DNA of 38,982 bases, taken from contig CAZNFE010000001.1 in assembly GCA_964571945.1 (NCBI GenBank), positions 1-38,982 on the forward strand. The letters are read 5' to 3'. Of this stretch, positions 17,980 to 38,775 are shown in pieces. The notes beneath the pieces were generated by a model. The model made no database searches. It worked only from the letters and a program-made list of their open reading frames with translations, and was not told the DNA's origin. Made by a program: the position numbers and the translations under genes. This DNA is from an uncultured Pseudomonadales bacterium. GTDB lineage: Bacteria; Pseudomonadota; Gammaproteobacteria; Pseudomonadales; Azotimanducaceae. Positions within the stretch are counted from its first letter, which is position 1; the number at the start of each line of letters is the position of its first letter.

Positions 17980-20900
17980 TTACGCTCCACTGGAGAAGGT
18001 CAAACTCTTCCCCTTCCTTTGCTGGGCCAGAATTTCTTCGAGAGTCACATGCATCTTCGTCTGCACGGCAAGCATCTTGTCTTCGGTAGTATTCTGCAGG
18101 AATGAAGCGAATCCACGGCCAAATTGCCCGAAGCCTCCAACTGCGATTTCCTTGGTCCTTTCTTCAGATGCCTGCAGGTCCTGCGCAAGCTTCTCCTGCT
18201 GATTGCGTACAGCCTGGTCGATGGACAGCATTGCGTCTTTCTCTGCGTTCGCAGCATCGGCCGCATCGCGAGCTGCCATCAGATCTGCTTCATCTCCTGA
18301 TGTGATGGCTGCCCGGAATAGATCTGTCGCCCTTCCAAATACCTCTTGAGCCTGTTGCTTCATCCTGTCGCGTGCTTCCTTCAGCAATGCCAGGTATTGC
18401 TTCGGGTTTTCCTCAGCGGCATCGGCCATCTTCTTTCCGATTTCACGCGCCCTCATCTCCTCCCTTGCTTCTCGCAACCCACGCGCCCATCCCCTGGCTT
18501 CCTCCAGGGCCTTCTGGCTATTTTCCTTTGATGCCTTCAGTGCCTTGTCACGGATGGCCTGCTCTTTCCTCTGCTGTTCCTGCATACTGCGTTCTTGGCT
18601 GGATAGCTGAGCTTCCCTTGCACTATTGGCGCGCAATAGCATCGCATAGGATTCTTCTTCGGCCCTGACTCTCAGGCCAGCAATACGTCTGGCTTCAGCA
18701 AAGTGTTCTTCTGCTGCCTGGATGTCTTCCTCATCTATCTTCTGACCGGCGTTCTTTCGCGCCTTCAGCTCAGCCAGCACGCGCCCGGATGCTTCCGCCT
18801 CATTTATCGCTACCTTTGCCTCCAGGCCAGACCGTTCAAGTTTGGCCTGTGCGTCAGCAATAGCCTTCTGTGGGTCAAGCTCAAGAGTTGCCTCGAAGAT
18901 CGTCTTTTCTTCTCTGACAGTACCGCGTTCCTCAAATTTCCGGCGTTGCTCAATTATGTCACGGAGCGTCTTATCTGCGAGCTTTGTAATCTCATCTTCC
19001 AGATCTCTCTGGACCTGAAGGCGCTTTTTGGCAATTTCACGCTCGACTTCAATCTTGCCATTTCCTGCGCTATTCAGTGCATCGACCTCGCCATCCAATA
19101 TCTTTTTAATGGCAATTGCAGTGAAGCGAGCCTGAAAGATGCGCTCCCGCTGTATCTTCTCGCTTTGGGATGAGCGGCTATCAACCCGCTGGGCACCCGC
19201 CTGCTTGGCTGCCTTCAATTGCTCCTTCAATGCAGTTGTGATTTCTTCCTGGGTCTTGCCCTGTGCCCGAAGCTCAGCGATATATTCTTTCTGCTCATCT
19301 ATCGCGCCCCGTATGGTAGCGGGCTTTTTGCCGATAAGTTCCTCCAGCTCGATATTCGCAAGCGCTGTCGATCTTTCCAACGCATCGGTTTCATCAACCA
19401 CTTTCTCAATATCAAGGGCCAAAGAAGTCGCATATCCCGCCGCCGCAAGTGCAGCCACCGTAGCCAATGCCGCGCCTACGGTAGCAATCGCAGGAGCTGC
19501 TGCTATTGCGGCTGCTTTGATGGAGGCGAATGCCCCAACGGCTGCGGTCTGTAGTGATGTGAATGCGGCTGAGGCCGCCGCTGGAGCGCCCTTCAGGGTT
19601 GTGAGCATGCTGGAAAAGGCTGTCTTCGATGCCGTGCTGATTGAGGTCAAAGCTCCAGCAATTGACGTCTTGAGCGCCGCCATGCCAGCAGTTGCTGCGC
19701 CTTTGATTGCCTCAAAGGCCGCCGTCGGACCAGGTATGGCCTTCAGCATAGTCCAAAGATTTTTTGTGTTTGCGGCAATTGCTGACCCAACGCTCCTGAA
19801 ACCAGATGCCAAGCTCTGCAGCACCGGACCCATCTTCGTCGCCAGATTGGCATCCATTACGAAGCGGAATGCCTTGTTGAGGGTGATTATGCTGGATATT
19901 GCACCAGCCACCGCCTTCAGGCCTGCGCCAGTCGCCAGAAGCGCGACGCCAAGCTTCCCAACCCCAATGACCAGCCCATGATTCTCTGCTATCCAGACAG
20001 TGATGGCCGGCACAATTTGTTTTATCCAGACGATAAGCGCCCTGACCGGCTCCTTTATAGCAGCACCAATCTCTACCATAGCGCTCTTAATCTCTTGTAC
20101 CATCTTTAGGTACTGACGATTTATTGTATTTACCATCTTGCTTGATGCGGCCTCTGTTGCGCCGGCCGCTTTCTGCATGGCATCAAGATCACCCTGGAAT
20201 TGATCCATGGCATTCAGGGCCGGCAATAGGCCAGTCACCGCTCCAATGTTCGGGAATAGCTTCGCTACTGTGTCGCTAGGCAGCCCGGCAATCTCCTGGA
20301 AGACGCCACCAAGACCCTTCGCCTTCAAAGCCGCTGCGTCCAGCTTTAATCCCATCTGTTCGGCAACATCAGCCGCCTCTTTAGTCGGCTTCAGGAAGCT
20401 CGAAATAATGGCTTTGATGCTAGTTATAGCCTCAGATGTCTGCACGCCGTTACGCGTGAGGAGGGCCAGCATTGCTCCAAGCTCTTCGAATGACACGCCG
20501 GCATTATTGGCTAAATTGGCCACTTGGCCAATAACCGGCGCCAGCTGAGCGAACGTTGTCTTGCCTCGACGCTGGATCGTGAAGAATACATCCGATACTG
20601 CCGCCGCATCTTCGGCTGACTTGCCATAGCTGTTCAGCACAGTAGTTAGCGCATCTGCTGCGGTCTTAGTATCAGTGAAGCCACCAACGGCAGCCTTGGT
20701 TGCGACGGTCAGGACGTCTATGGCCTGACCGGTAGGCACTGAAGCTGACAGGATATCATAAAGCCCATCAGCCATTATGCTTGTATCAACACCAAACTGA
20801 GTGCTCAGTTCGCGTACCTGCTTGCCGAATTTATCCATTGCTGTCTGGTTGCCATCAATGACAGTCCCAACCTTCGCCATTGATTCTTCAAAGCTGGCAA

Positions 20901-21093
20901 ACTCTTTTGAAGCTCCGGCCAGCGGCGCCAGGATCCCCACCCCAGCGGCGGCAAATGACGTTCCGATTGAGCTCAGCTTCCGGCCAAACGCCTGCATCTT
21001 ATCCTGGGCTGTCTTCAGGTCTTCGCTGAATTTATTCAGGTCGATCCGAAGATCCACCAGCCCTTCACCAGCTGGTACGCTTCCAGCACTCAT
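17980..21093 (-). CDS. tail tape measure protein (1037 aa)
   Basis: Supported by its size, Ala/Gly-rich hydrophobic central segments, long charged helical regions, the TP901-type core (..TSIMADGLYDILSASVP..), and its position after the G/GT chaperone pair. Confidence 0.9.
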   Translation of the reverse strand: MSAGSVPAGEGLVDLRIDLNKFSEDLKTAQDKMQAFGRKLSSIGTSFAAAGVGILAPLAGASKEFASFEESMAKVGTVIDGNQTAMDKFGKQVRELSTQFGVDTSIMADGLYDILSASVPTGQAIDVLTVATKAAVGGFTDTKTAADALTTVLNSYGKSAEDAAAVSDVFFTIQRRGKTTFAQLAPVIGQVANLANNAGVSFEELGAMLALLTRNGVQTSEAITSIKAIISSFLKPTKEAADVAEQMGLKLDAAALKAKGLGGVFQEIAGLPSDTVAKLFPNIGAVTGLLPALNAMDQFQGDLDAMQKAAGATEAASSKMVNTINRQYLKMVQEIKSAMVEIGAAIKEPVRALIVWIKQIVPAITVWIAENHGLVIGVGKLGVALLATGAGLKAVAGAISSIITLNKAFRFVMDANLATKMGPVLQSLASGFRSVGSAIAANTKNLWTMLKAIPGPTAAFEAIKGAATAGMAALKTSIAGALTSISTASKTAFSSMLTTLKGAPAAASAAFTSLQTAAVGAFASIKAAAIAAAPAIATVGAALATVAALAAAGYATSLALDIEKVVDETDALERSTALANIELEELIGKKPATIRGAIDEQKEYIAELRAQGKTQEEITTALKEQLKAAKQAGAQRVDSRSSQSEKIQRERIFQARFTAIAIKKILDGEVDALNSAGNGKIEVEREIAKKRLQVQRDLEDEITKLADKTLRDIIEQRRKFEERGTVREEKTIFEATLELDPQKAIADAQAKLERSGLEAKVAINEAEASGRVLAELKARKNAGQKIDEEDIQAAEEHFAEARRIAGLRVRAEEESYAMLLRANSAREAQLSSQERSMQEQQRKEQAIRDKALKASKENSQKALEEARGWARGLREAREEMRAREIGKKMADAAEENPKQYLALLKEARDRMKQQAQEVFGRATDLFRAAITSGDEADLMAARDAADAANAEKDAMLSIDQAVRNQQEKLAQDLQASEERTKEIAVGGFGQFGRGFASFLQNTTEDKMLAVQTKMHVTLEEILAQQRKGKSLTFSSGA

Positions 21094-32305: not shown

Positions 32306-34348
32306 TCAAAACACCCCAACGGCAACACAGCCGCAGTTCACATTCTCTTCCGCCAGGCTCCCGGACCCCGGGAATGGCATATTGTCAGCACCAACCCTGA
32401 AATTCTCTCCCTGCCCAACAATCTGGCCATCAGCATCCTGATGCGTCTCACGGCTATTCACGAAGCTCGTGACCCATTGCTTCTTTGGAACTTTATTGTG
32501 ATTTCTGAACGCATCACCGCCGGCGTTCCACATCCTGGTGGTCTCAGTATGGGCAATCATGGCTGCCCGGCTCTCGCTCATTTGGCCCATCTTATCAATG
32601 ATGGCGCCCTTGATCTCATCGAATGTATTCCTATTGGCCAATCCCTCTGAGATTGTCTCCTTGATAGCCTCATGGGTAGCACTTGCCATCTCATCCACAT
32701 AGGCGCCCCCATAGCTGTTGGTGTAGCTATCGATGATGGGTAGCTGCTCATCCCACTCAACCTCGGCATCCCCGGCGAGTTCGCTATTGAACTCCCCGCC
32801 AAGGTATACGCCCTGTCGGTCAATCTTCGATTTATTGCGTGCAATGCGCTCTTTCAGCTTGGTAACCTCTATGACGCTATCCACATTTGGCGTTTCGGGT
32901 CCCTGCTGGCCATAATCACGTTCAAGAGCATCAATTATATCCTTTGTCAATGCATTGAAGATCTGCTCCATGAAAGCAGCATAGCGATTCTGATAACGCT
33001 CTTTGCTGTCCGTCCATGCCCGCACAATCCTATCCCGCTCGCTGCCGCTATAGAGCTCTAGCTTTTGCTGGCCAGGCCCACCTGGCGCTCCCTCACTAAG
33101 TGGTCTCAGACCGGCGCTCACCAGTGGCTCATCACCCCACGGCACAGCATCAAGTCCTCGTGCAGCCCGGATCTCATTGATGGTCCTGACCCCAAGCTCA
33201 AGGTCCTGTTGCTCCTGCTTCTGAGTCAGCTCCTTGTCCTCTGGCGCAATGTCGTCAAACACAAGGCGCTGTGACTCACCGTAAAGTGGAGCAACGTCTT
33301 GGTTTACGCGGGCAGTAACCATTCTGACTATCGGCTGGAGAGTGTTGCGTGCCAGGACTGTATGCATGCCCCATATGCTCGCGCGGTTGGCGTCAACATC
33401 CATACCCAGCATGGACTTCGGTACCTTCATGACCGCCAGAATCGTATCCCGCAGCCACTCCCGGCCCTTCACGTCGTTGATTAGCGGCGACATGGGCGGG
33501 AACTTGACGTCCATCGTCTTGGCAATGCCGATTGTCCGGCCTGCCTTGCCCGCGCCAGTATATTTGTCGTTGAACTTGGCAAGGTATTCGGCGCGCTTCT
33601 TCTCGTCCTGGGTGGCCATGCTCAGGATGGCGCTTGGGAAAATGCCCTGCTTATATTTGGCCCACATGCTGCGGGTAGCTTCCTTGTCCAGGCCGATCTC
33701 CGCCGCCGCTGCCTCAGCCAGGCCGTAGCCTTCCCAGAAGCTACCGGGCTTCGGGATGCGCAGGAACATCACCTCTTCAGGCGTGAGCTCATCCGTTTTC
33801 TCTATGCCCTTGTTGTTCTTATACTTATGCTTCCAGTTCAGCAACTCAACCCGATCACTTGCGACCGTTGGTGTCATTTCCCCGGACAGTGGGTACATCT
33901 CGGCCGGCTCGTTCAGCCCGTTCATCACAATCCGCCAGTAGCTCTCGCCAACCATAGCCAGCTCAACGGCTACCCAATACCAGAACTCCTGACCGGTCAT
34001 GAATGGATTGACATCGTGCAGCATGGTGGCCATTGGGCCATCTGGGTCATCTTCCCACTCCGCGGTATCACTGGAGCGGGTCTGGACATTATAGCCGGCC
34101 ATCATGATGCCAAAGCCGATCTGACTCGCAGCCGCGAAGGCCCAGCGGATGAAATATTTCTCGAGTTGGTTCTTGGAGATTTTGGTGGGTACATGGTCCG
34201 GTGAGCTGCTGCCCAGCATGGCCCCTAGGTCTATGGCCTGGACAACGTAGTTGCCACTATCATCCCGGCCTGCAACTATTGGCCGGTCGGATAATGCGAC
34301 CTGGACGCCCGCCCGTAGTCTGGAGAGTAGATTCATGTTGACCCCCAT
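32306..34348 (-). CDS. portal protein fused to a MuF/SPP1-gp7-like head morphogenesis domain
   Basis: The N-terminal approx 430 aa is portal-like (..LHDVNPFMTGQEFWYWVAVELAMVGESYWRIV..). The C-terminal approx 250 aa is MuF-like (..AHTETTRMWNAGG...SRETHQDADGQ...NCGCVAV). An alternative ATG lies at 34336. Confidence 0.8.
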   Translation of the reverse strand: MGVNMNLLSRLRAGVQVALSDRPIVAGRDDSGNYVVQAIDLGAMLGSSSPDHVPTKISKNQLEKYFIRWAFAAASQIGFGIMMAGYNVQTRSSDTAEWEDDPDGPMATMLHDVNPFMTGQEFWYWVAVELAMVGESYWRIVMNGLNEPAEMYPLSGEMTPTVASDRVELLNWKHKYKNNKGIEKTDELTPEEVMFLRIPKPGSFWEGYGLAEAAAAEIGLDKEATRSMWAKYKQGIFPSAILSMATQDEKKRAEYLAKFNDKYTGAGKAGRTIGIAKTMDVKFPPMSPLINDVKGREWLRDTILAVMKVPKSMLGMDVDANRASIWGMHTVLARNTLQPIVRMVTARVNQDVAPLYGESQRLVFDDIAPEDKELTQKQEQQDLELGVRTINEIRAARGLDAVPWGDEPLVSAGLRPLSEGAPGGPGQQKLELYSGSERDRIVRAWTDSKERYQNRYAAFMEQIFNALTKDIIDALERDYGQQGPETPNVDSVIEVTKLKERIARNKSKIDRQGVYLGGEFNSELAGDAEVEWDEQLPIIDSYTNSYGGAYVDEMASATHEAIKETISEGLANRNTFDEIKGAIIDKMGQMSESRAAMIAHTETTRMWNAGGDAFRNHNKVPKKQWVTSFVNSRETHQDADGQIVGQGENFRVGADNMPFPGSGSLAEENVNCGCVAVGVF

Positions 34349-34404
34349 TTCAGGAAACCTTCAGGATTCGAGGGCCTGTGTCAAGCTATTTCTTTAATTG
34401 GGCC

Positions 34405-34433
34405 ATAAAAATAGGGGCCTGGGAGGTGGCCCC
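34405..34433 (-). terminator. rho-independent terminator closing the upstream accessory block
   Basis: Minus strand reads GGGGCC-ACCTCCCA-GGCCCC followed by TATTTTTAT. It lies 37 nt after the stop of the 53-aa ORF and about 60 nt before the portal start. Confidence 0.65.
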
Positions 34434-34469
34434 AGACCCCCTGCAGCAAGGAGTTCCCCTGATGCTGCA

Positions 34470-34631
34470 TCAATCCCACACAGCCTTCCCGAGCTGCTCT
34501 TCATTGTCCATGCGGTCGAAATGCTCCAGCAGATCATCACGCTTCTCCAGGATCTCGAACGCCACATCCCGCAACAGCCTGCCAGCTCCATCCAGCCCCA
34601 TATACTCCTCCGGCCATCCAGTCTCTTTCAT
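34470..34631 (-). CDS. hypothetical 53-aa acidic helical protein (below the ORF-track cutoff)
   Basis: My translation: MKETGWPEEYMGLDGAGRLLRDVAFEILEKRDDLLEHFDRMDNEEQLGKAVWD. GAAAGGTG lies 7 nt upstream. It is the last gene before the terminator. Confidence 0.45.
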   Translation of the reverse strand: MKETGWPEEYMGLDGAGRLLRDVAFEILEKRDDLLEHFDRMDNEEQLGKAVWD

Positions 34632-34644
34632 TGTGCCACACCTT

Positions 34645-34812
34645 TCAAAGATTTGTCATCTTTTTCATTTGTCCTACCTGCCGCTCTGGCCGCTTGCCTT
34701 TCTCCTGGTGGCACCCGCGGCAATACGGTTTCCCGTTTTCCCACTTGACGCCGCTCTCACGTTCCGCCAGGCCAGTCTCCTTCAGTGGCTCATTGCACCG
34801 GTTGCATCGCAT
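34645..34812 (-). CDS. 55-aa zinc-ribbon protein (below the ORF-track cutoff)
   Basis: My translation: MRCNRCNEPLKETGLAERESGVKWENGKPYCRGCHQEKGKRPERQVGQMKKMTNL. It has CxxC...CxxC. GGGAGG lies 5 nt before the ATG. Confidence 0.5.
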   Translation of the reverse strand: MRCNRCNEPLKETGLAERESGVKWENGKPYCRGCHQEKGKRPERQVGQMKKMTNL

Positions 34813-35014
34813 TCTTGCCTCCCTTCGTGCCGCGCGTCGATATGCTGATTGAAATGCTCAGCCCCGCCTTATCCGGCAGGATCTCCACCATGACGTCCAG
34901 GCCGTCCGGCATGTCAGCACATACGCCAGTGCTGAGCAGCTTAGTCAGATCGTCAAGGCTTACCTCGGTCATCTGCAGCCCGCCGTCCTTTGTGATTGTC
35001 ACCTTCAATCCCAT
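34790..35014 (-). CDS. hypothetical protein (74 aa)
   Basis: ATG start inside the stop region of the upstream gene. No motif recognised. Confidence 0.4.
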   Translation of the reverse strand: MGLKVTITKDGGLQMTEVSLDDLTKLLSTGVCADMPDGLDVMVEILPDKAGLSISISISTRGTKGGKNAMQPVQ

Positions 35015-35349
35015 GCCTCCCCTGCCAAGATCTTGTCATCATAGACCATATTGTAGTAGGTCTCCCATGACAATGTCCAGCCAATGATGTTCTCTATTTC
35101 GCGTTTGCGCTTCACCTTTGGCATGGACTCCAGTTCACGGAATAGCTGATGGACACGCATGCGCAACGCTCTGGCGAATGTGCTGCGGTAGTCCCTGCAT
35201 ATGGTCCACACCCTATCGCACTTACGGCACCTCAGGTCCCTGGCCTCAGTTTGAGTGCGGATGCCTCCCAGATCCTTGACCATTCGTATTCGCAGCTTGT
35301 TCGTATAGACATCATCATTCCCACACTCAGGGCAAATCTTTCCGGCCAT
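35005..35349 (-). CDS. zinc-ribbon protein (114 aa)
   Basis: MAGKICPECGNDD...RCRKCDR has CxxC...CxxC. ATG 35349 follows GGAGGACATC. The track start 35361 is an alternative. Confidence 0.55.
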   Translation of the reverse strand: MAGKICPECGNDDVYTNKLRIRMVKDLGGIRTQTEARDLRCRKCDRVWTICRDYRSTFARALRMRVHQLFRELESMPKVKRKREIENIIGWTLSWETYYNMVYDDKILAGEAWD

Positions 35350-35360
35350 GATGTCCTCCA

Positions 35361-35486
35361 TTAAAATCCAATGGTTGCTATAAGAATTGCTGCTGCCAGA
35401 TATAATGCAGCTGTCCCATTATCACCTGCGCGGCTTACCACGATGCCAATGACCAGCAATATGGATGATGCCGCTGCTTCAATCAT
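35361..35486 (-). CDS. 41-aa two-segment hydrophobic micro-protein
   Basis: My translation: MIEAAASSILLVIGIVVSRAGDNGTAALYLAAAILIATIGF. It starts inside the GATGATTGA stop of the upstream gene, and its TAA overlaps ATG 35361. Confidence 0.4.
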   Translation of the reverse strand: MIEAAASSILLVIGIVVSRAGDNGTAALYLAAAILIATIGF

Positions 35487-35661
35487 CGTCATCCCCATGC
35501 TTAACATATCGTGCTGCCCTCAAGTCAACACTATCAACCGTCCATCTATCAATGACCCTGAGTGCTTCTCCCTCTGTTTGAAACGCCCCGAGGCTTCCCA
35601 TCACAGACCATTCATCATCACCATAGCGCGCTTCAATCATCCAGATGCCTCGTGTTGTCAT
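35479..35661 (-). CDS. hypothetical small acidic protein (60 aa; 53 aa if started at 35640)
   Basis: ATG 35661 follows GAGGGGCCAA. An alternative ATG at 35640 lies in a GATGATTGAAGC junction identical to the one at 35486. Confidence 0.45.
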   Translation of the reverse strand: MTTRGIWMIEARYGDDEWSVMGSLGAFQTEGEALRVIDRWTVDSVDLRAARYVKHGDDDD

Positions 35662-36118
35662 TTGGCCCCTCTGCCTCAAGATATTCAGCCTCCCTGCTGA
35701 TGACGTATATTCTAGTCCCTGGCCCGACCCAGAGCTGCTTGCCTACCTGGCCGCTGAATGGATGGTCACATGGTATGCCGCATGTCTGTGTCACCACATA
35801 TACATTCGGCGCCACCTCTCCCCCGCAACCGCCCAGCAACATCACCAATATCAGGGCCGCCAGCAGAACCGCAATCCAGCATATCCGCTTGTCAATGTCT
35901 CTCACTCCTTCACCTCCCTCTTCTTGTTCCTTCTCTTGACATCCGGATCGTCTATTCCATGCTGTCACTAGCGCCTTGCGGCTGAAGTATCCTGCGCCTG
36001 CCGCATCCTCACGCAAATAGCATCCCTTGGTCGGGCAGCGACTCACCGTGTACATCATACCCGGACCCCTGACCTTCATTTTGGCACCGCAGAATGGGCA
36101 TGGCCTTAGCTCGGTCAT
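35633..36118 (-). CDS. Lar-like (restriction alleviation family) zinc ribbon continued in frame into a signal-peptide/lipobox-like segment and a small extracytoplasmic domain
   Basis: MTELRPCPFCGAKMKV...YTVSRCPTKGCYL...SRKALVTAWNRR matches the Lar-family pattern (LKPCPFCG ... C..C ... A...WNRR). Then come an acidic linker, KRICWIAVLLAALILVMLLGGCGGE and about 70 more aa. ATGA overlap with the upstream gene. Confidence 0.6.
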   Translation of the reverse strand: MTELRPCPFCGAKMKVRGPGMMYTVSRCPTKGCYLREDAAGAGYFSRKALVTAWNRRSGCQEKEQEEGGEGVRDIDKRICWIAVLLAALILVMLLGGCGGEVAPNVYVVTQTCGIPCDHPFSGQVGKQLWVGPGTRIYVISREAEYLEAEGPNDNTRHLDD

Positions 36119-36339
36119 CTATCCTCCTCTCCGCGCAGTGCTTTACGTACAATCTCTTGCCTAGTCTTCGTGAACGGACAGGTCTTCAACCATGCTTGAT
36201 GATATATTCCACCGCTTCCGCGCCAAGTAACATCAGGCATATCTCCGTTCTTCTCTGCATGACATTCAGGACACCAAGCCTCCGTCCCTTCATCACTACG
36301 ATAGGTATCCTTGCATATCTCGCAGACCCTTGTATGCAT
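36115..36339 (-). CDS. zinc-finger protein (74 aa)
   Basis: MHTRVCEICKD...WCPECH has CxxC...CxxC. ATG 36339 follows GGAGGTGGAGTG and shares one nt with the upstream TGA. Confidence 0.55.
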   Translation of the reverse strand: MHTRVCEICKDTYRSDEGTEAWCPECHAEKNGDMPDVTWRGSGGIYHQAWLKTCPFTKTRQEIVRKALRGEEDR

Positions 36340-37919
36340 CACTCCACCTCCTCTGCTGGTGTGGCAACAACGTACCCAAGTATGCTCAAATGTGTTAGCA
36401 CAGCATCTACGGCCTCCATTGACGCTTGATCTTCCTGCCCTACGTTAACACTGTTTGATATTAGTTCGACAAGCGATGAGTCCCATGTCCAACCACCTTT
36501 GCCGAGATGCTGCCTTGGCAATGGTTTGCACAGCACCTTCTCCCCGTCAGCATCGGCGGGGTGTTGCTTTGGCTTGAAAATCTTATACCCATCAGAAGAT
36601 AGAACCCTGAACCTTTTGGCCACAAACCGCATGGCATGTTCGTAAAAACGCTTATACCCTACAAGAGATGTTGGCTTAATCTGGTCACTCATGGTGTCTA
36701 TATCGTCAAGCATACACCATAGTAGTCCTGCGTCGGTATTCGTTAAATCCTTTCCCTCGTCAGCATCGGCAGGTGGTGCTGGTCTCTGTGTTACTGGTCT
36801 GCCACCGATTTTCCCTTGTTTCTTATCCAACTCCGGCAGCTTGCCGTCTGTGAGAATAATGCGGTAGTTGCTCAGCGAACCCCAACCGGATAGACTATCC
36901 TTATGCTTTACTGAACACCATTCGCCATTGCCGTTGATATATTGCGATATTCCGTTAGGTACTGAATAGTGCTCGTCCCACATCGCCATTGTGTCTTGCT
37001 CGGACCAGCCAAGGTTGACCAGTTCGTCCAGCTGAATGTTTGGGGCTGGCTTGTAGCACACCATGCAGATCACAAATGCGCCGTGTGTGCCGTCGTCCAT
37101 TATTGCGTAATCACGCTTCGCGCAGCAGTCCTCCTGCGGCTGTTGCTTTGGGGTGAAGTGCTTGGCCGACCCTCCACAAGCCCACCAAGCACCGCGGGCA
37201 TGCTTCTGTGTCCACTTCTGCCCTGGTTGAGGAGATGGCACGTCGTACACTCTGGGGTCGACGTTACATGTTCCATCGGCATTGCAGTTGCCGCAATCCT
37301 CGCACCGCCGTTCTGGTTGCTTGGTGTCTACATAGCGTCCACGACCGCAGCCGCAAACCTGCCCAATGTATGAGAAGTCTTGACGCTCACCGCACATGGA
37401 ACACTCGCATTGACGTTCTGGTTTCTTGGGCTTGAAGTTGTCTGTGTATGATCGATTCCTGCTGCAGTACTCGCAATCATCCGATGGCTCACCCCAGGCC
37501 TCACAGCATTCGCCACACTCAGGTTCTTCTGGTTGTGACTTCTCAAGCGCCGCAATGCGCCCCATCTGCTGCATGGCGACCTCGGCCGTCCTCTCTTCCG
37601 ACTTCTCCAGTTCGTCCACGCGCCTCATCGTTGCCAGGACCTGCTCGTTGACCCCGTGGATGCTGTATGCGGATTCCTCGTTCTCTAGTGCTTCGATACG
37701 CTCATCAAGTCCACCCCATGCCGAGGTTGCACAATCTTCCCTCGCCTTTACGGAAGTCATATCCTGCTCCAGGGCATCGACCTTCTTCTCGAGCTCAGCG
37801 AACGCCGCATTGTCCGGCGTATCGCACTCAAGGTTTGAAATACGCTCCTTTATTGCGTCAATGCTCTCGTTTACCTGCATCTCCCAAGCGATACGAGCGC
37901 GTTCGTTAATATCATCCAT
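36339..37919 (-). CDS. large hypothetical protein: N-terminal coiled coil, Cys-dense repeat region, C-terminal globular part
   Basis: Residues ~1-130 are heptad-like (..ELEKKVDALEQDM.. ..RIEALENEE.. ..RVDELEKSEE..). Residues 136-289 contain about 19 Cys by my count, with recurring ..PK(K/Q)PER(Q/R)CE.C.. units. PPADADEGKDL and HPADADGEKVL are duplicated later. ATG 37919 overlaps the radical-SAM gene by 8 nt. Confidence 0.6.
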   Translation of the reverse strand: MDDINERARIAWEMQVNESIDAIKERISNLECDTPDNAAFAELEKKVDALEQDMTSVKAREDCATSAWGGLDERIEALENEESAYSIHGVNEQVLATMRRVDELEKSEERTAEVAMQQMGRIAALEKSQPEEPECGECCEAWGEPSDDCEYCSRNRSYTDNFKPKKPERQCECSMCGERQDFSYIGQVCGCGRGRYVDTKQPERRCEDCGNCNADGTCNVDPRVYDVPSPQPGQKWTQKHARGAWWACGGSAKHFTPKQQPQEDCCAKRDYAIMDDGTHGAFVICMVCYKPAPNIQLDELVNLGWSEQDTMAMWDEHYSVPNGISQYINGNGEWCSVKHKDSLSGWGSLSNYRIILTDGKLPELDKKQGKIGGRPVTQRPAPPADADEGKDLTNTDAGLLWCMLDDIDTMSDQIKPTSLVGYKRFYEHAMRFVAKRFRVLSSDGYKIFKPKQHPADADGEKVLCKPLPRQHLGKGGWTWDSSLVELISNSVNVGQEDQASMEAVDAVLTHLSILGYVVATPAEEVE

Positions 37920-38775
37920 CACTCATCCCCTTCGCTCTCATTCGTTCCCTACACAGCTTCTTGACCTTCGCCTTGGTGATCGACGGCCTATCCCACGCCC
38001 GCTGCAAATCGTCCCAGTCCTCATTGCTGTTCCCATGCTTGTCCATCCATAGCATCCCAAACGGTAGAAAACCGGCCATCCACGCATCGAGCAGGCGATT
38101 CTCTGCATCACGCATGTTGTCTCCAGGCCACCCCATCAACACGTAGCACCGGAGATGTGAGCGGGTGAAGTTTGCGATTCGCAACATGCGCCCTGCCTCA
38201 AACAGCGGTTCCCTGTCGTCCGGTGTGTCGTAGGCAAAGAACATGGATGATGGACGCAGATCCCACAGGTGCTCTACGTGCCACCACTCAAGCCGTGCGG
38301 CCTCAAGGCCGCCCTTGAACTCTATGGCACACCCCTTGTGGGCCTGCACATCCAGCATTCCAAACACGCGCTCAATGTGGACCCGAGAACAGGCCAGCAG
38401 ATTGTCGTCTTGCACGATATGTCCCGGCTGAATTGGCAACTCTACCACCTCTCGATTATGCCTTTTCCACACCTCGCAGAACCAACAATCATTCGGACAC
38501 CCACGAGACGTGATGGTGATACCCTTCTTCAGGTAACGCCCTGGAACAAATTCTCCGTTGCGCTCTGGCGTGGCCGGCCCGCCTATCTTTACCGGAGCAA
38601 CGTGTCGCCACATATCTGCAAGGTCATCCGCTCTTTGCTGGTCGAATGTGAACGCCACAGACACATGGACCTCATCAATGTCGTCAGATAGGCCGATTGC
38701 TGGAGGTGTGCCAATGAACGCATAATCATCTACTGGCGTGTATCTTGTCTGACGCGGGAACACCCTTGCTATCAT
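37912..38775 (-). CDS. radical SAM enzyme (287 aa)
   Basis: ITITSRGCPNDCWFCEVW is a CX3CX2C cluster in the SRGCP..C.FC context seen in MiaB/B12-class radical SAM proteins. No SPASM-type C-terminal Cys cluster is visible. GAGAGGA lies 6 nt before the ATG. Confidence 0.75.
   Translation of the reverse strand: MIARVFPRQTRYTPVDDYAFIGTPPAIGLSDDIDEVHVSVAFTFDQQRADDLADMWRHVAPVKIGGPATPERNGEFVPGRYLKKGITITSRGCPNDCWFCEVWKRHNREVVELPIQPGHIVQDDNLLACSRVHIERVFGMLDVQAHKGCAIEFKGGLEAARLEWWHVEHLWDLRPSSMFFAYDTPDDREPLFEAGRMLRIANFTRSHLRCYVLMGWPGDNMRDAENRLLDAWMAGFLPFGMLWMDKHGNSNEDWDDLQRAWDRPSITKAKVKKLCRERMRAKGMSDG

Follow-up and report, generated by a model that had tools for sequence, protein, structure and literature searches.

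Eight small open reading frames (ORFs) on the minus strand (hereafter referred to as g1–g8; 41–161 amino acids, aa) occupy positions 34470–36342 of a 38,982-bp contig (C1) assigned to an uncultured Pseudomonadales bacterium. The whole of this contig is the window analysed here; it carries the genes of a tailed phage, and the eight ORFs lie directly upstream of the portal operon. On balance, we consider it probable that they form the variable distal end of a coupled operon of at least ten genes, and that this end is a mixed array of accessory genes, probably not one system. The evidence bearing on this reading includes a codon signal confined to the annotated frames, overlapping stop and start codons, a Lar-type domain in g2 and the replacement of the small genes at the same position in a relative.

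Organisation of the operon

The features of the block and of the genes preceding it in the operon are as follows.

37912–38775, minus strand: radical S-adenosylmethionine (SAM) gene, same coupled operon as the 527-aa gene
36339–37922, minus strand: 527-aa coiled-coil, Cys-rich protein, upstream of g1 in the same coupled operon
36115–36339, minus strand: g1, 74 aa (ORF, coding score)
35633–36118, minus strand: g2, 161 aa (ORF, Pfam Lar match)
35630–35641, minus strand: 12-mer GATGATTGAAGC at the g2 stop/g3 start (exact repeat)
35479–35640, minus strand: g3, 53 aa (ORF, coding score)
35476–35487, minus strand: identical 12-mer GATGATTGAAGC at the g3 stop/g4 start, 154 nucleotides (nt) downstream of the first copy
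35361–35486, minus strand: g4, 41 aa (ORF, coding score)
35005–35349, minus strand: g5, likelier 114 aa (Shine-Dalgarno, SD, site and recorded gene call); 118 aa from 35361
34790–35014, minus strand: g6, 74 aa (ORF, coding score)
34645–34812, minus strand: g7, 55 aa (ORF, strong SD site)
34470–34631, minus strand: g8, 53 aa (ORF, coding score)
34413–34441, minus strand: intrinsic terminator with a 12-pair stem (8 G-C pairs) and a T-run, 28 nt past g8

The chain of eight coupled ORFs followed by a terminator, as described in the first-pass annotation, is present. Its statement that the genes are joined by overlaps applies to six of the seven internal junctions. The g1/g2 junction is ATGA, there is an 8-nt overlap at both g2/g3 and g3/g4, and the g5/g6 and g6/g7 overlaps are 10 nt and 23 nt, respectively. 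Genes g4 and g5 overlap by 1 nt, or are separated by 11 nt if g5 starts at 35349. At g7/g8 there is a 13-nt gap, and g8 alone in the chain does not overlap its upstream neighbour. Coupling extends beyond the block: the TGA stop of the 527-aa gene lies over the g1 ATG with a 1-nt overlap (GTGATG; TGATG). As the radical-SAM gene overlaps the 527-aa gene, which in turn overlaps g1, the unit comprises at least ten genes. As judged from a crude longest-ORF gene set, overlaps occur at eight of the nine junctions between the radical-SAM gene and g8, versus about a third elsewhere in the window.

The terminator closes this operon ahead of the portal operon. The late operon begins 121 nt downstream from the block, which adjoins the portal gene without an intervening terminase. 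The gap between the terminator and the portal gene (34349–34412) contains a perfect TTGACA and, 17 nt further on, AAGGTT, but lacks a usable −10; the TTGACA was read from the sequence and is absent from the scan's list. An activator or a different sigma factor may be required for the late operon, and the lack of a −10 makes a regulator among g1–g8 plausible.

Coding capacity of the eight ORFs

Codon usage was scored as log-odds, with 17 long genes of the window as the training set. Every ORF reached 0.12–0.59 per codon in its annotated frame, and the other five frames were all negative (calibration on 55-codon windows: 0.35 ± 0.18 in-frame and −0.61 ± 0.26 off-frame). The highest score per codon was obtained for g8, followed by g6. 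Most of the g1–g8 starts have SD sites, and 10 of the 72 minus-strand GGAGG motifs of the window lie within the block, which makes up 4.8% of the sequence; seven of these 10 precede start codons of g1–g8. In addition, g3 and g4 each span precisely the interval between the preceding stop and the following start. Given the frame-specific codon signal, the SD sites and this exact filling, we take all eight ORFs to be genuine protein-coding genes.

The start codon is ambiguous for g3, g4, g6 and g8, for which other in-frame starts exist, some with better SD sites. Better sites precede the alternative g3 starts at 35661 (ATG) and 35679 (TTG); g4 would be 48 aa long if read from the ATG at 35507; TTG 35008 has better SD spacing for g6; and the alternative g8 start at 34601 has GGAGG 5 nt upstream. 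For g5, the start at 35349 (MAGKIC) has GGAGG 5 nt upstream (GGAGGACATC-ATG), and the resulting 114-aa form is the gene call on record.

Each of the eight proteins is a singleton at 90% identity in a collection of 15 billion proteins. The G+C content at third codon positions (GC3) is low in g1, g3 and g4 (0.34–0.45 versus 0.61), which fits a foreign origin. The weak SD sites at the MIEA starts of g3 and g4, together with their low GC3 (0.34–0.42) and lack of homologues, would also be expected if these two shortest ORFs were non-gene spacer that happens to be open. We consider this highly improbable, given that their coding score is positive in the annotated frame only, that they fit their slots exactly and that better SD sites precede in-frame upstream starts.

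The Lar-type gene g2

The first-pass annotation counted one Lar-like gene among the eight, and g2 bears this out. It matches Pfam Lar_restr_allev (PF14354) with 32.1 bits (cut-off 28.6) over model positions 1–57 of 58, and a six-frame search gave 33.6 bits. The Lar-family zinc ribbon corresponds to residues 2–57 (35948–36115), with the four zinc-binding cysteines C7, C10, C28 and C33 and the W-N-R-R tail of the Lar model retained. There is a further match to PHROG 599 (Lar-like), and the score against NCBIfam TIGR03655 (anti_R_Lar) is below the cut-off (29.6 versus 39.6 bits). At 161 aa, g2 does not have the size of a stand-alone Lar protein (about 60–75 aa): beyond the ribbon it has a linker, a hydrophobic helix and another 64 aa.

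The linker following the ribbon is acidic and leads into GGGAGGTGA, 7 nt and a GTG at 35905 (V72). Within 35825–35917 there is an 8-nt perfect anti-SD match, GGAGGTGA, located 4 nt (7 nt from the GGAGG core) before this in-frame GTG. Translation from GTG 35905 would yield a 90-aa product with an n-region (RDIDKR), a hydrophobic stretch (ICWIAVLLAALILVMLL), a lipobox (LLGG-C98) and a 64-aa mature part containing two further cysteines. In lipoprotein signals (PROSITE PS51257), a basic n-region and a hydrophobic core precede a lipobox Cys lying some 15–35 residues from the start. As read from the sequence, the lipobox Cys of g2 is residue 27 from GTG 35905 (MRDIDKR-ICWIAVLLAALILVMLL-GG-C27) and residue 98 from the annotated start. 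Provided that translation begins at GTG 35905, a lipoprotein-type signal would thus head the second half of g2. These features suggest either a 90-aa product nested in g2 or two genes that were recently fused in frame; our reading is of a Lar gene that was joined in frame to one for a lipoprotein and has kept the latter's ribosome site. Nothing significant was found for the lipoprotein half across 400 genomes of the order.

A lysis function for g2 and g4 was considered and rejected: there was no significant holin, endolysin or spanin match for either protein, with an Rz-like PHROG at E 0.07 only, and no lysin family among the scanned neighbours.

Two side observations concern the g2 N-terminus. 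The start of g2, AGATGACCGAGCTAAG (MTEL.., 36105–36120), recurs with one mismatch in g6, at the in-frame Met15 (MTEV.., 34959–34974). In addition, two adjacent proteins of an unrelated viral contig (L002, 6384–7044) end in YCP(F/N)CGAKMDGGN, sharing the CPFCGAKM zinc knuckle with which g2 opens; in small phage proteins, this motif seems to move between the two termini.

The other small proteins

The first-pass annotation's count of at least four zinc ribbons agrees with the CxxC...CxxC spacings present in g1, g2, g5 and g7. In g1, an N-terminal CxxC-x12-CxxC ribbon follows a strong SD site (GAGGAGGTGGAGTG-ATG), and no relatives of this protein were found. The basic protein g5 (isoelectric point, pI, 9.2) has a CxxC-x31-CxxC zinc ribbon followed by a C-terminal half that is helical in a low-confidence model. 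A HMMER search over 1.84 billion representatives yielded one real relative of g5, P0012 (118 aa, 30% identity, E 4e-4), which shares its CxxC..KDLGG..CxxC layout; each of the two proteins touches DUF6431 below the cut-off. A second match, P0011, was discarded as a 1060-aa tandem-repeat artefact. In word-based homologue searches, g5 and g2 retrieved only themselves. The single-sequence AlphaFold model of g5 was too poor to use, and the fold search returned only a non-significant match to the NrdR zinc ribbon. From its sequence, binding to nucleic acid (DNA or RNA) is a more likely role for g5 than that of an inhibitor. Its modelled helical tail is a candidate only for a helix-turn-helix (HTH) element, and there was no match to an HTH family at E ≤ 0.1 in Pfam or NCBIfam that would point to an Aca-like regulator.

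The basic protein g7 has a CxxC-x24-CxxC zinc ribbon and a strong SD site. It fails the HNH model, matching only positions 28–55 of 56, the zinc-binding C-terminal end, with 20.9 versus 27.5 bits. The pI values of g3, g6 and g8 are in the acidic range of 4.4–4.7. Neither g3 (pI 4.5, computed on the 60-aa form) nor the very acidic g8 (15 D+E) has a Cys; g6 has one and is only mildly acidic (9 D+E versus 7 K+R). The hydropathy of g4 (GRAVY 1.49) and its two hydrophobic stretches may be read as a two-helix membrane hairpin. Beyond the matches given above for g2, g5 and g7, nothing was found in Pfam, PHROGs, NCBIfam or the PDB sequences, and PADLOC and Rfam gave no match in the block. The start of g8 (MKETGW) resembles residues 10–15 of g7 (LKETGL), with 19 of 25 nt identical at a spacing of 154 nt.

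Repeats at the stop/start junctions

The identical 12-mer that the first-pass annotation placed at two junctions is real, and its coordinates were one base off (35476–35487 and 35630–35641 being the true positions). Within each copy, a stop codon and a candidate start are placed in identical register, and g3 is therefore flanked on either side by a 12-bp direct repeat. Some 12-mer repeat occurred in the region in 14% of shuffles, and only 2 of 5000 random position sets reached a run of 12 in register at two of the eight starts; the register of the 12-mer at two start codons is not due to chance. The local duplication invoked to explain it did not hold up. As similarity between the flanks of the two copies is at chance level and there is no paralogy among the eight proteins, we reject an extended duplication around the 12-mer. 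Recombination across the repeat would join g2 to g4 with the overlap preserved.

Repeats are also found among the small genes upstream of the portal gene in the relative described below (L005, genes A–G). The starts of genes A and B (1–21 and 255–275) are identical at 20 of 21 nt. A second repeat, AATCATGAGCAArCC, is located at an in-frame internal ATG of gene E (M41, MSKP...) and at the start of gene F (MSKP...), with a shorter match to it, AATCATGA, at the D/E junction (repeat coordinates 1169–1193, 1289–1320 and 1484–1498). As a side observation, gene E resembles an in-frame fusion retaining an internal SD site and ATG. The 34-aa gene G (1834–1938) is a partial copy of residues 39–70 of the Lar-like protein F (47% over 32 aa, E 7e-9). 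Within a small sample, we take these repeats to indicate cassette turnover at the junctions.

Relatives and gene content of the slot

A word-indexed search covering 5.8 billion proteins, in which 8000 candidates were scored, yielded one portal homologue at E ≤ 1e-10 (P0010, 43% identical), on a 4.2-kb JGI contig (L005). Upstream of its portal gene lie seven small coupled genes, four of them Cys-rich and one weakly Lar-like (E 0.009), none with detectable similarity to g1–g8. As this contig has different small genes at the same position, the slot is conserved in kind and replaced in content, which fits an accessory region. Such a hypervariable slot is typical of accessory or counter-defence regions.

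A portal-alignment scan yielded only relatives of ≤27% identity. In a distant one (L007, 27% identity), the portal gene is directly preceded by a 451-aa ORF, terminase-sized and known by size alone. Searches with the 527-aa protein, g2 and the portal protein in IMG/VR, JGI metagenomes and GTDB genomes returned two distant Lar homologues only. The Lar homologues in the viral contigs L002 and L003 are 37% identical (75 and ~70–89 aa) and lie in chains of small zinc-ribbon genes; in L002, the only one of the two for which neighbours were scanned, the chain is downstream from a replisome organiser and a resolvase. The 527-aa protein was absent from 300 genomes of the host family, and a blastn search of the INPHARED phages gave no match.

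Phage and host context

The tailed phage was identified from PHROG and Pfam scans of the window proteins, and gene orientation in the window is minus strand throughout. Two of the features recognised in these scans are:

32306–34348, minus strand: portal-MuF fusion
17980–21093, minus strand: tape-measure protein

The scans also identified a protease/scaffold, a major head protein, a glycan cassette, a RecE-like exonuclease, an HNH nuclease, a DnaC-like loader and a PAPS-reductase-like protein. The scanned long ORFs of the window included no large terminase, and PF03237 and PF03354 revealed none in the bin. As both contig ends interrupt an ORF, the phage genome is incomplete. The source bin comprises 601 contigs and is 88% complete. 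LpxC is present in this bin and Spo0A was not found, and the bin is therefore diderm.

Interpretation

The operon would run from an ORF cut by the contig end through the radical-SAM enzyme and the 527-aa Cys-rich protein to g1–g8. We picture it as transcribed into a single polycistronic mRNA, on which ribosomes finishing one gene would start on the next at the overlapping stop and start codons. For the Lar head of g2, a possible role is to modulate a type I restriction-modification (R-M) enzyme, as does Rac Lar, which acts on type I systems via enhanced methylation (PMC2993543). Starting from the internal SD site and GTG, the second half of g2 would be produced as a separate small lipoprotein, possibly serving in receptor blocking or superinfection exclusion. 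Meanwhile, g5, and perhaps g1 or g7, may bind nucleic acid and regulate the following late operon, which appears activator-dependent. The gene content of the slot would turn over via recombination at short junction sequences. A more far-reaching proposal is that the stop/start junctions act as recombination linkers at which single small genes, each with its own copy of the junction, are inserted, lost, swapped or fused in frame with coupling preserved, renewing a counter-defence and exclusion toolkit before the portal gene. The bracketing of g3 by the 12-mer, the g2 fusion with an old SD site and start inside it, and the shared A/B and E/F junctions of L005 would fit this proposal, which we put forward tentatively and hold to be doubtful.

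Several points weigh against our account of the block as a mixed accessory array. The structure models of g2 and g5 are of low confidence, the AF2 model of g2 included, and the fold search gave no significant match. No relative close enough for an analysis of the ratio of non-synonymous to synonymous substitutions (dN/dS) emerged from the phage, metagenome, genome and protein searches. Recombination at the junctions is suggested by a single pair of repeats in the window and a few repeats in one relative. The internal start of g2 is a predicted one; about half of the window's GGAGG motifs are not followed by a start codon. The phage is assigned to a diderm host by binning alone.

The first-pass annotation had proposed an anti-defence locus, and in its strongest form this would be a dedicated island in which most of the eight proteins inhibit host immunity (R-M, CRISPR or signalling systems). 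The Lar-family ribbon of g2 and the hypervariable content at a fixed position speak for that proposal; g3 and g8, both small and acidic, could act as DNA mimics or sponges, and anti-defence genes are known to cluster in mobile elements (PMC7648647). We nevertheless find a dedicated island unlikely: besides Lar there was no match to an anti-defence family or solved inhibitor in the databases named above, g2 itself is under the NCBIfam Lar cut-off, its second half is a predicted exported lipoprotein, and g5 and g7 resemble nucleic-acid-binding or nuclease-derived zinc ribbons. Moreover, no HsdS (type I specificity subunit, PF01420) was found in the 88%-complete bin.

Proteins g5, g1 and g7 could instead make the block regulatory or accessory to packaging, activating the late operon or assisting a terminase or HNH nuclease. 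Zinc-finger late activators, such as Ogr of P2, are known, and this role would suit the position immediately before the portal operon, the perfect TTGACA without a recognisable −10, the basic g5 with its zinc ribbon and helices, and the match of g7 to the tail of the HNH model. It appears quite unlikely, because no Ogr/Delta, ArpU/RinA, sigma factor or terminase small-subunit match was obtained at E ≤ 0.1, and because the relative carries unrelated genes, although a late operon that is conserved should come with conserved regulators. The common coupled operon raises the further idea that the small Cys-rich proteins, four of the eight, are substrates of the upstream radical-SAM enzyme or form a complex with that enzyme and the 527-aa protein, and g5 weakly touches the Cys-rich peptide family TIGR04165 (E 0.024). 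The Cys patterns are those of classical zinc ribbons, with no precursor-like repeats, three of the genes entirely lack Cys, and there is no match to a family of ribosomally synthesized and post-translationally modified peptides (RiPPs). L005 also lacks a radical-SAM gene, although this 4.2-kb contig is cut 2 kb upstream of the portal gene. We regard such a partnership as very unlikely.

Comparison with known systems

In the nin region of lambda and among the accessory genes of the lambda and Rac pL operons (ral or lar, kil, sieB), small genes with overlapping stops and starts lie after replication-type genes and before the late genes. The block described here resembles these regions: it is a series of small genes that look dispensable, placed distally in its operon, and it includes a restriction-alleviation-type gene. 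There was no match to the Nin (NinB, NinG, NinH), Kil, SieB or Ral families in Pfam, PHROGs or NCBIfam, and, unlike in the lambda regions, a contig break hides what lies upstream and the block borders on the portal gene with no terminase in between. The closest protein-level parallel is with Lar (RalR) of the Escherichia coli Rac prophage: g2 residues 2–57 cover nearly the whole Pfam model but, unlike Lar (about 64–75 aa), g2 continues in frame into a lipoprotein-type module.

Anti-defence clusters of mobile elements (Pinilla-Redondo et al. 2020, PMC7648647; AntiDefenseFinder, PMC11370490) differ from this block, in which the Lar-type domain is the only homologue of a validated anti-defence protein and no Aca-like HTH marker was found in Pfam or NCBIfam. 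They share with it small, fast-evolving, grouped genes, the content of which varies between relatives. In the PeSL cassettes of the hyperplastic regions of T4-type phages, orphan genes lie between short repeats of regulatory sequence (Arbiol et al. 2010, PMC2839356). As with PeSL, the repeats described here could mediate the gain, loss or swap of single genes. Unlike PeSL, they are 12–21-nt stop/SD/start junctions within an operon, with no promoter or stem-loop, and there is one pair in the window; the likeness is one of logic, and exchange at these junctions was not observed.

The phage lineage is almost unsampled, and the eight genes provide new sequences for the pool of small proteins mined for anti-defence, exclusion and takeover functions. 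Two features are slightly unusual: the putative in-frame fusion of a Lar-type head to a lipoprotein module with its own ribosome site, and the presence, in two distant relatives, of micro-repeats at junctions bracketing single genes. Coupled arrays of small zinc-ribbon genes that include a Lar-like member are common. The sequences are novel, and the arrangement is otherwise as expected of a phage accessory region.

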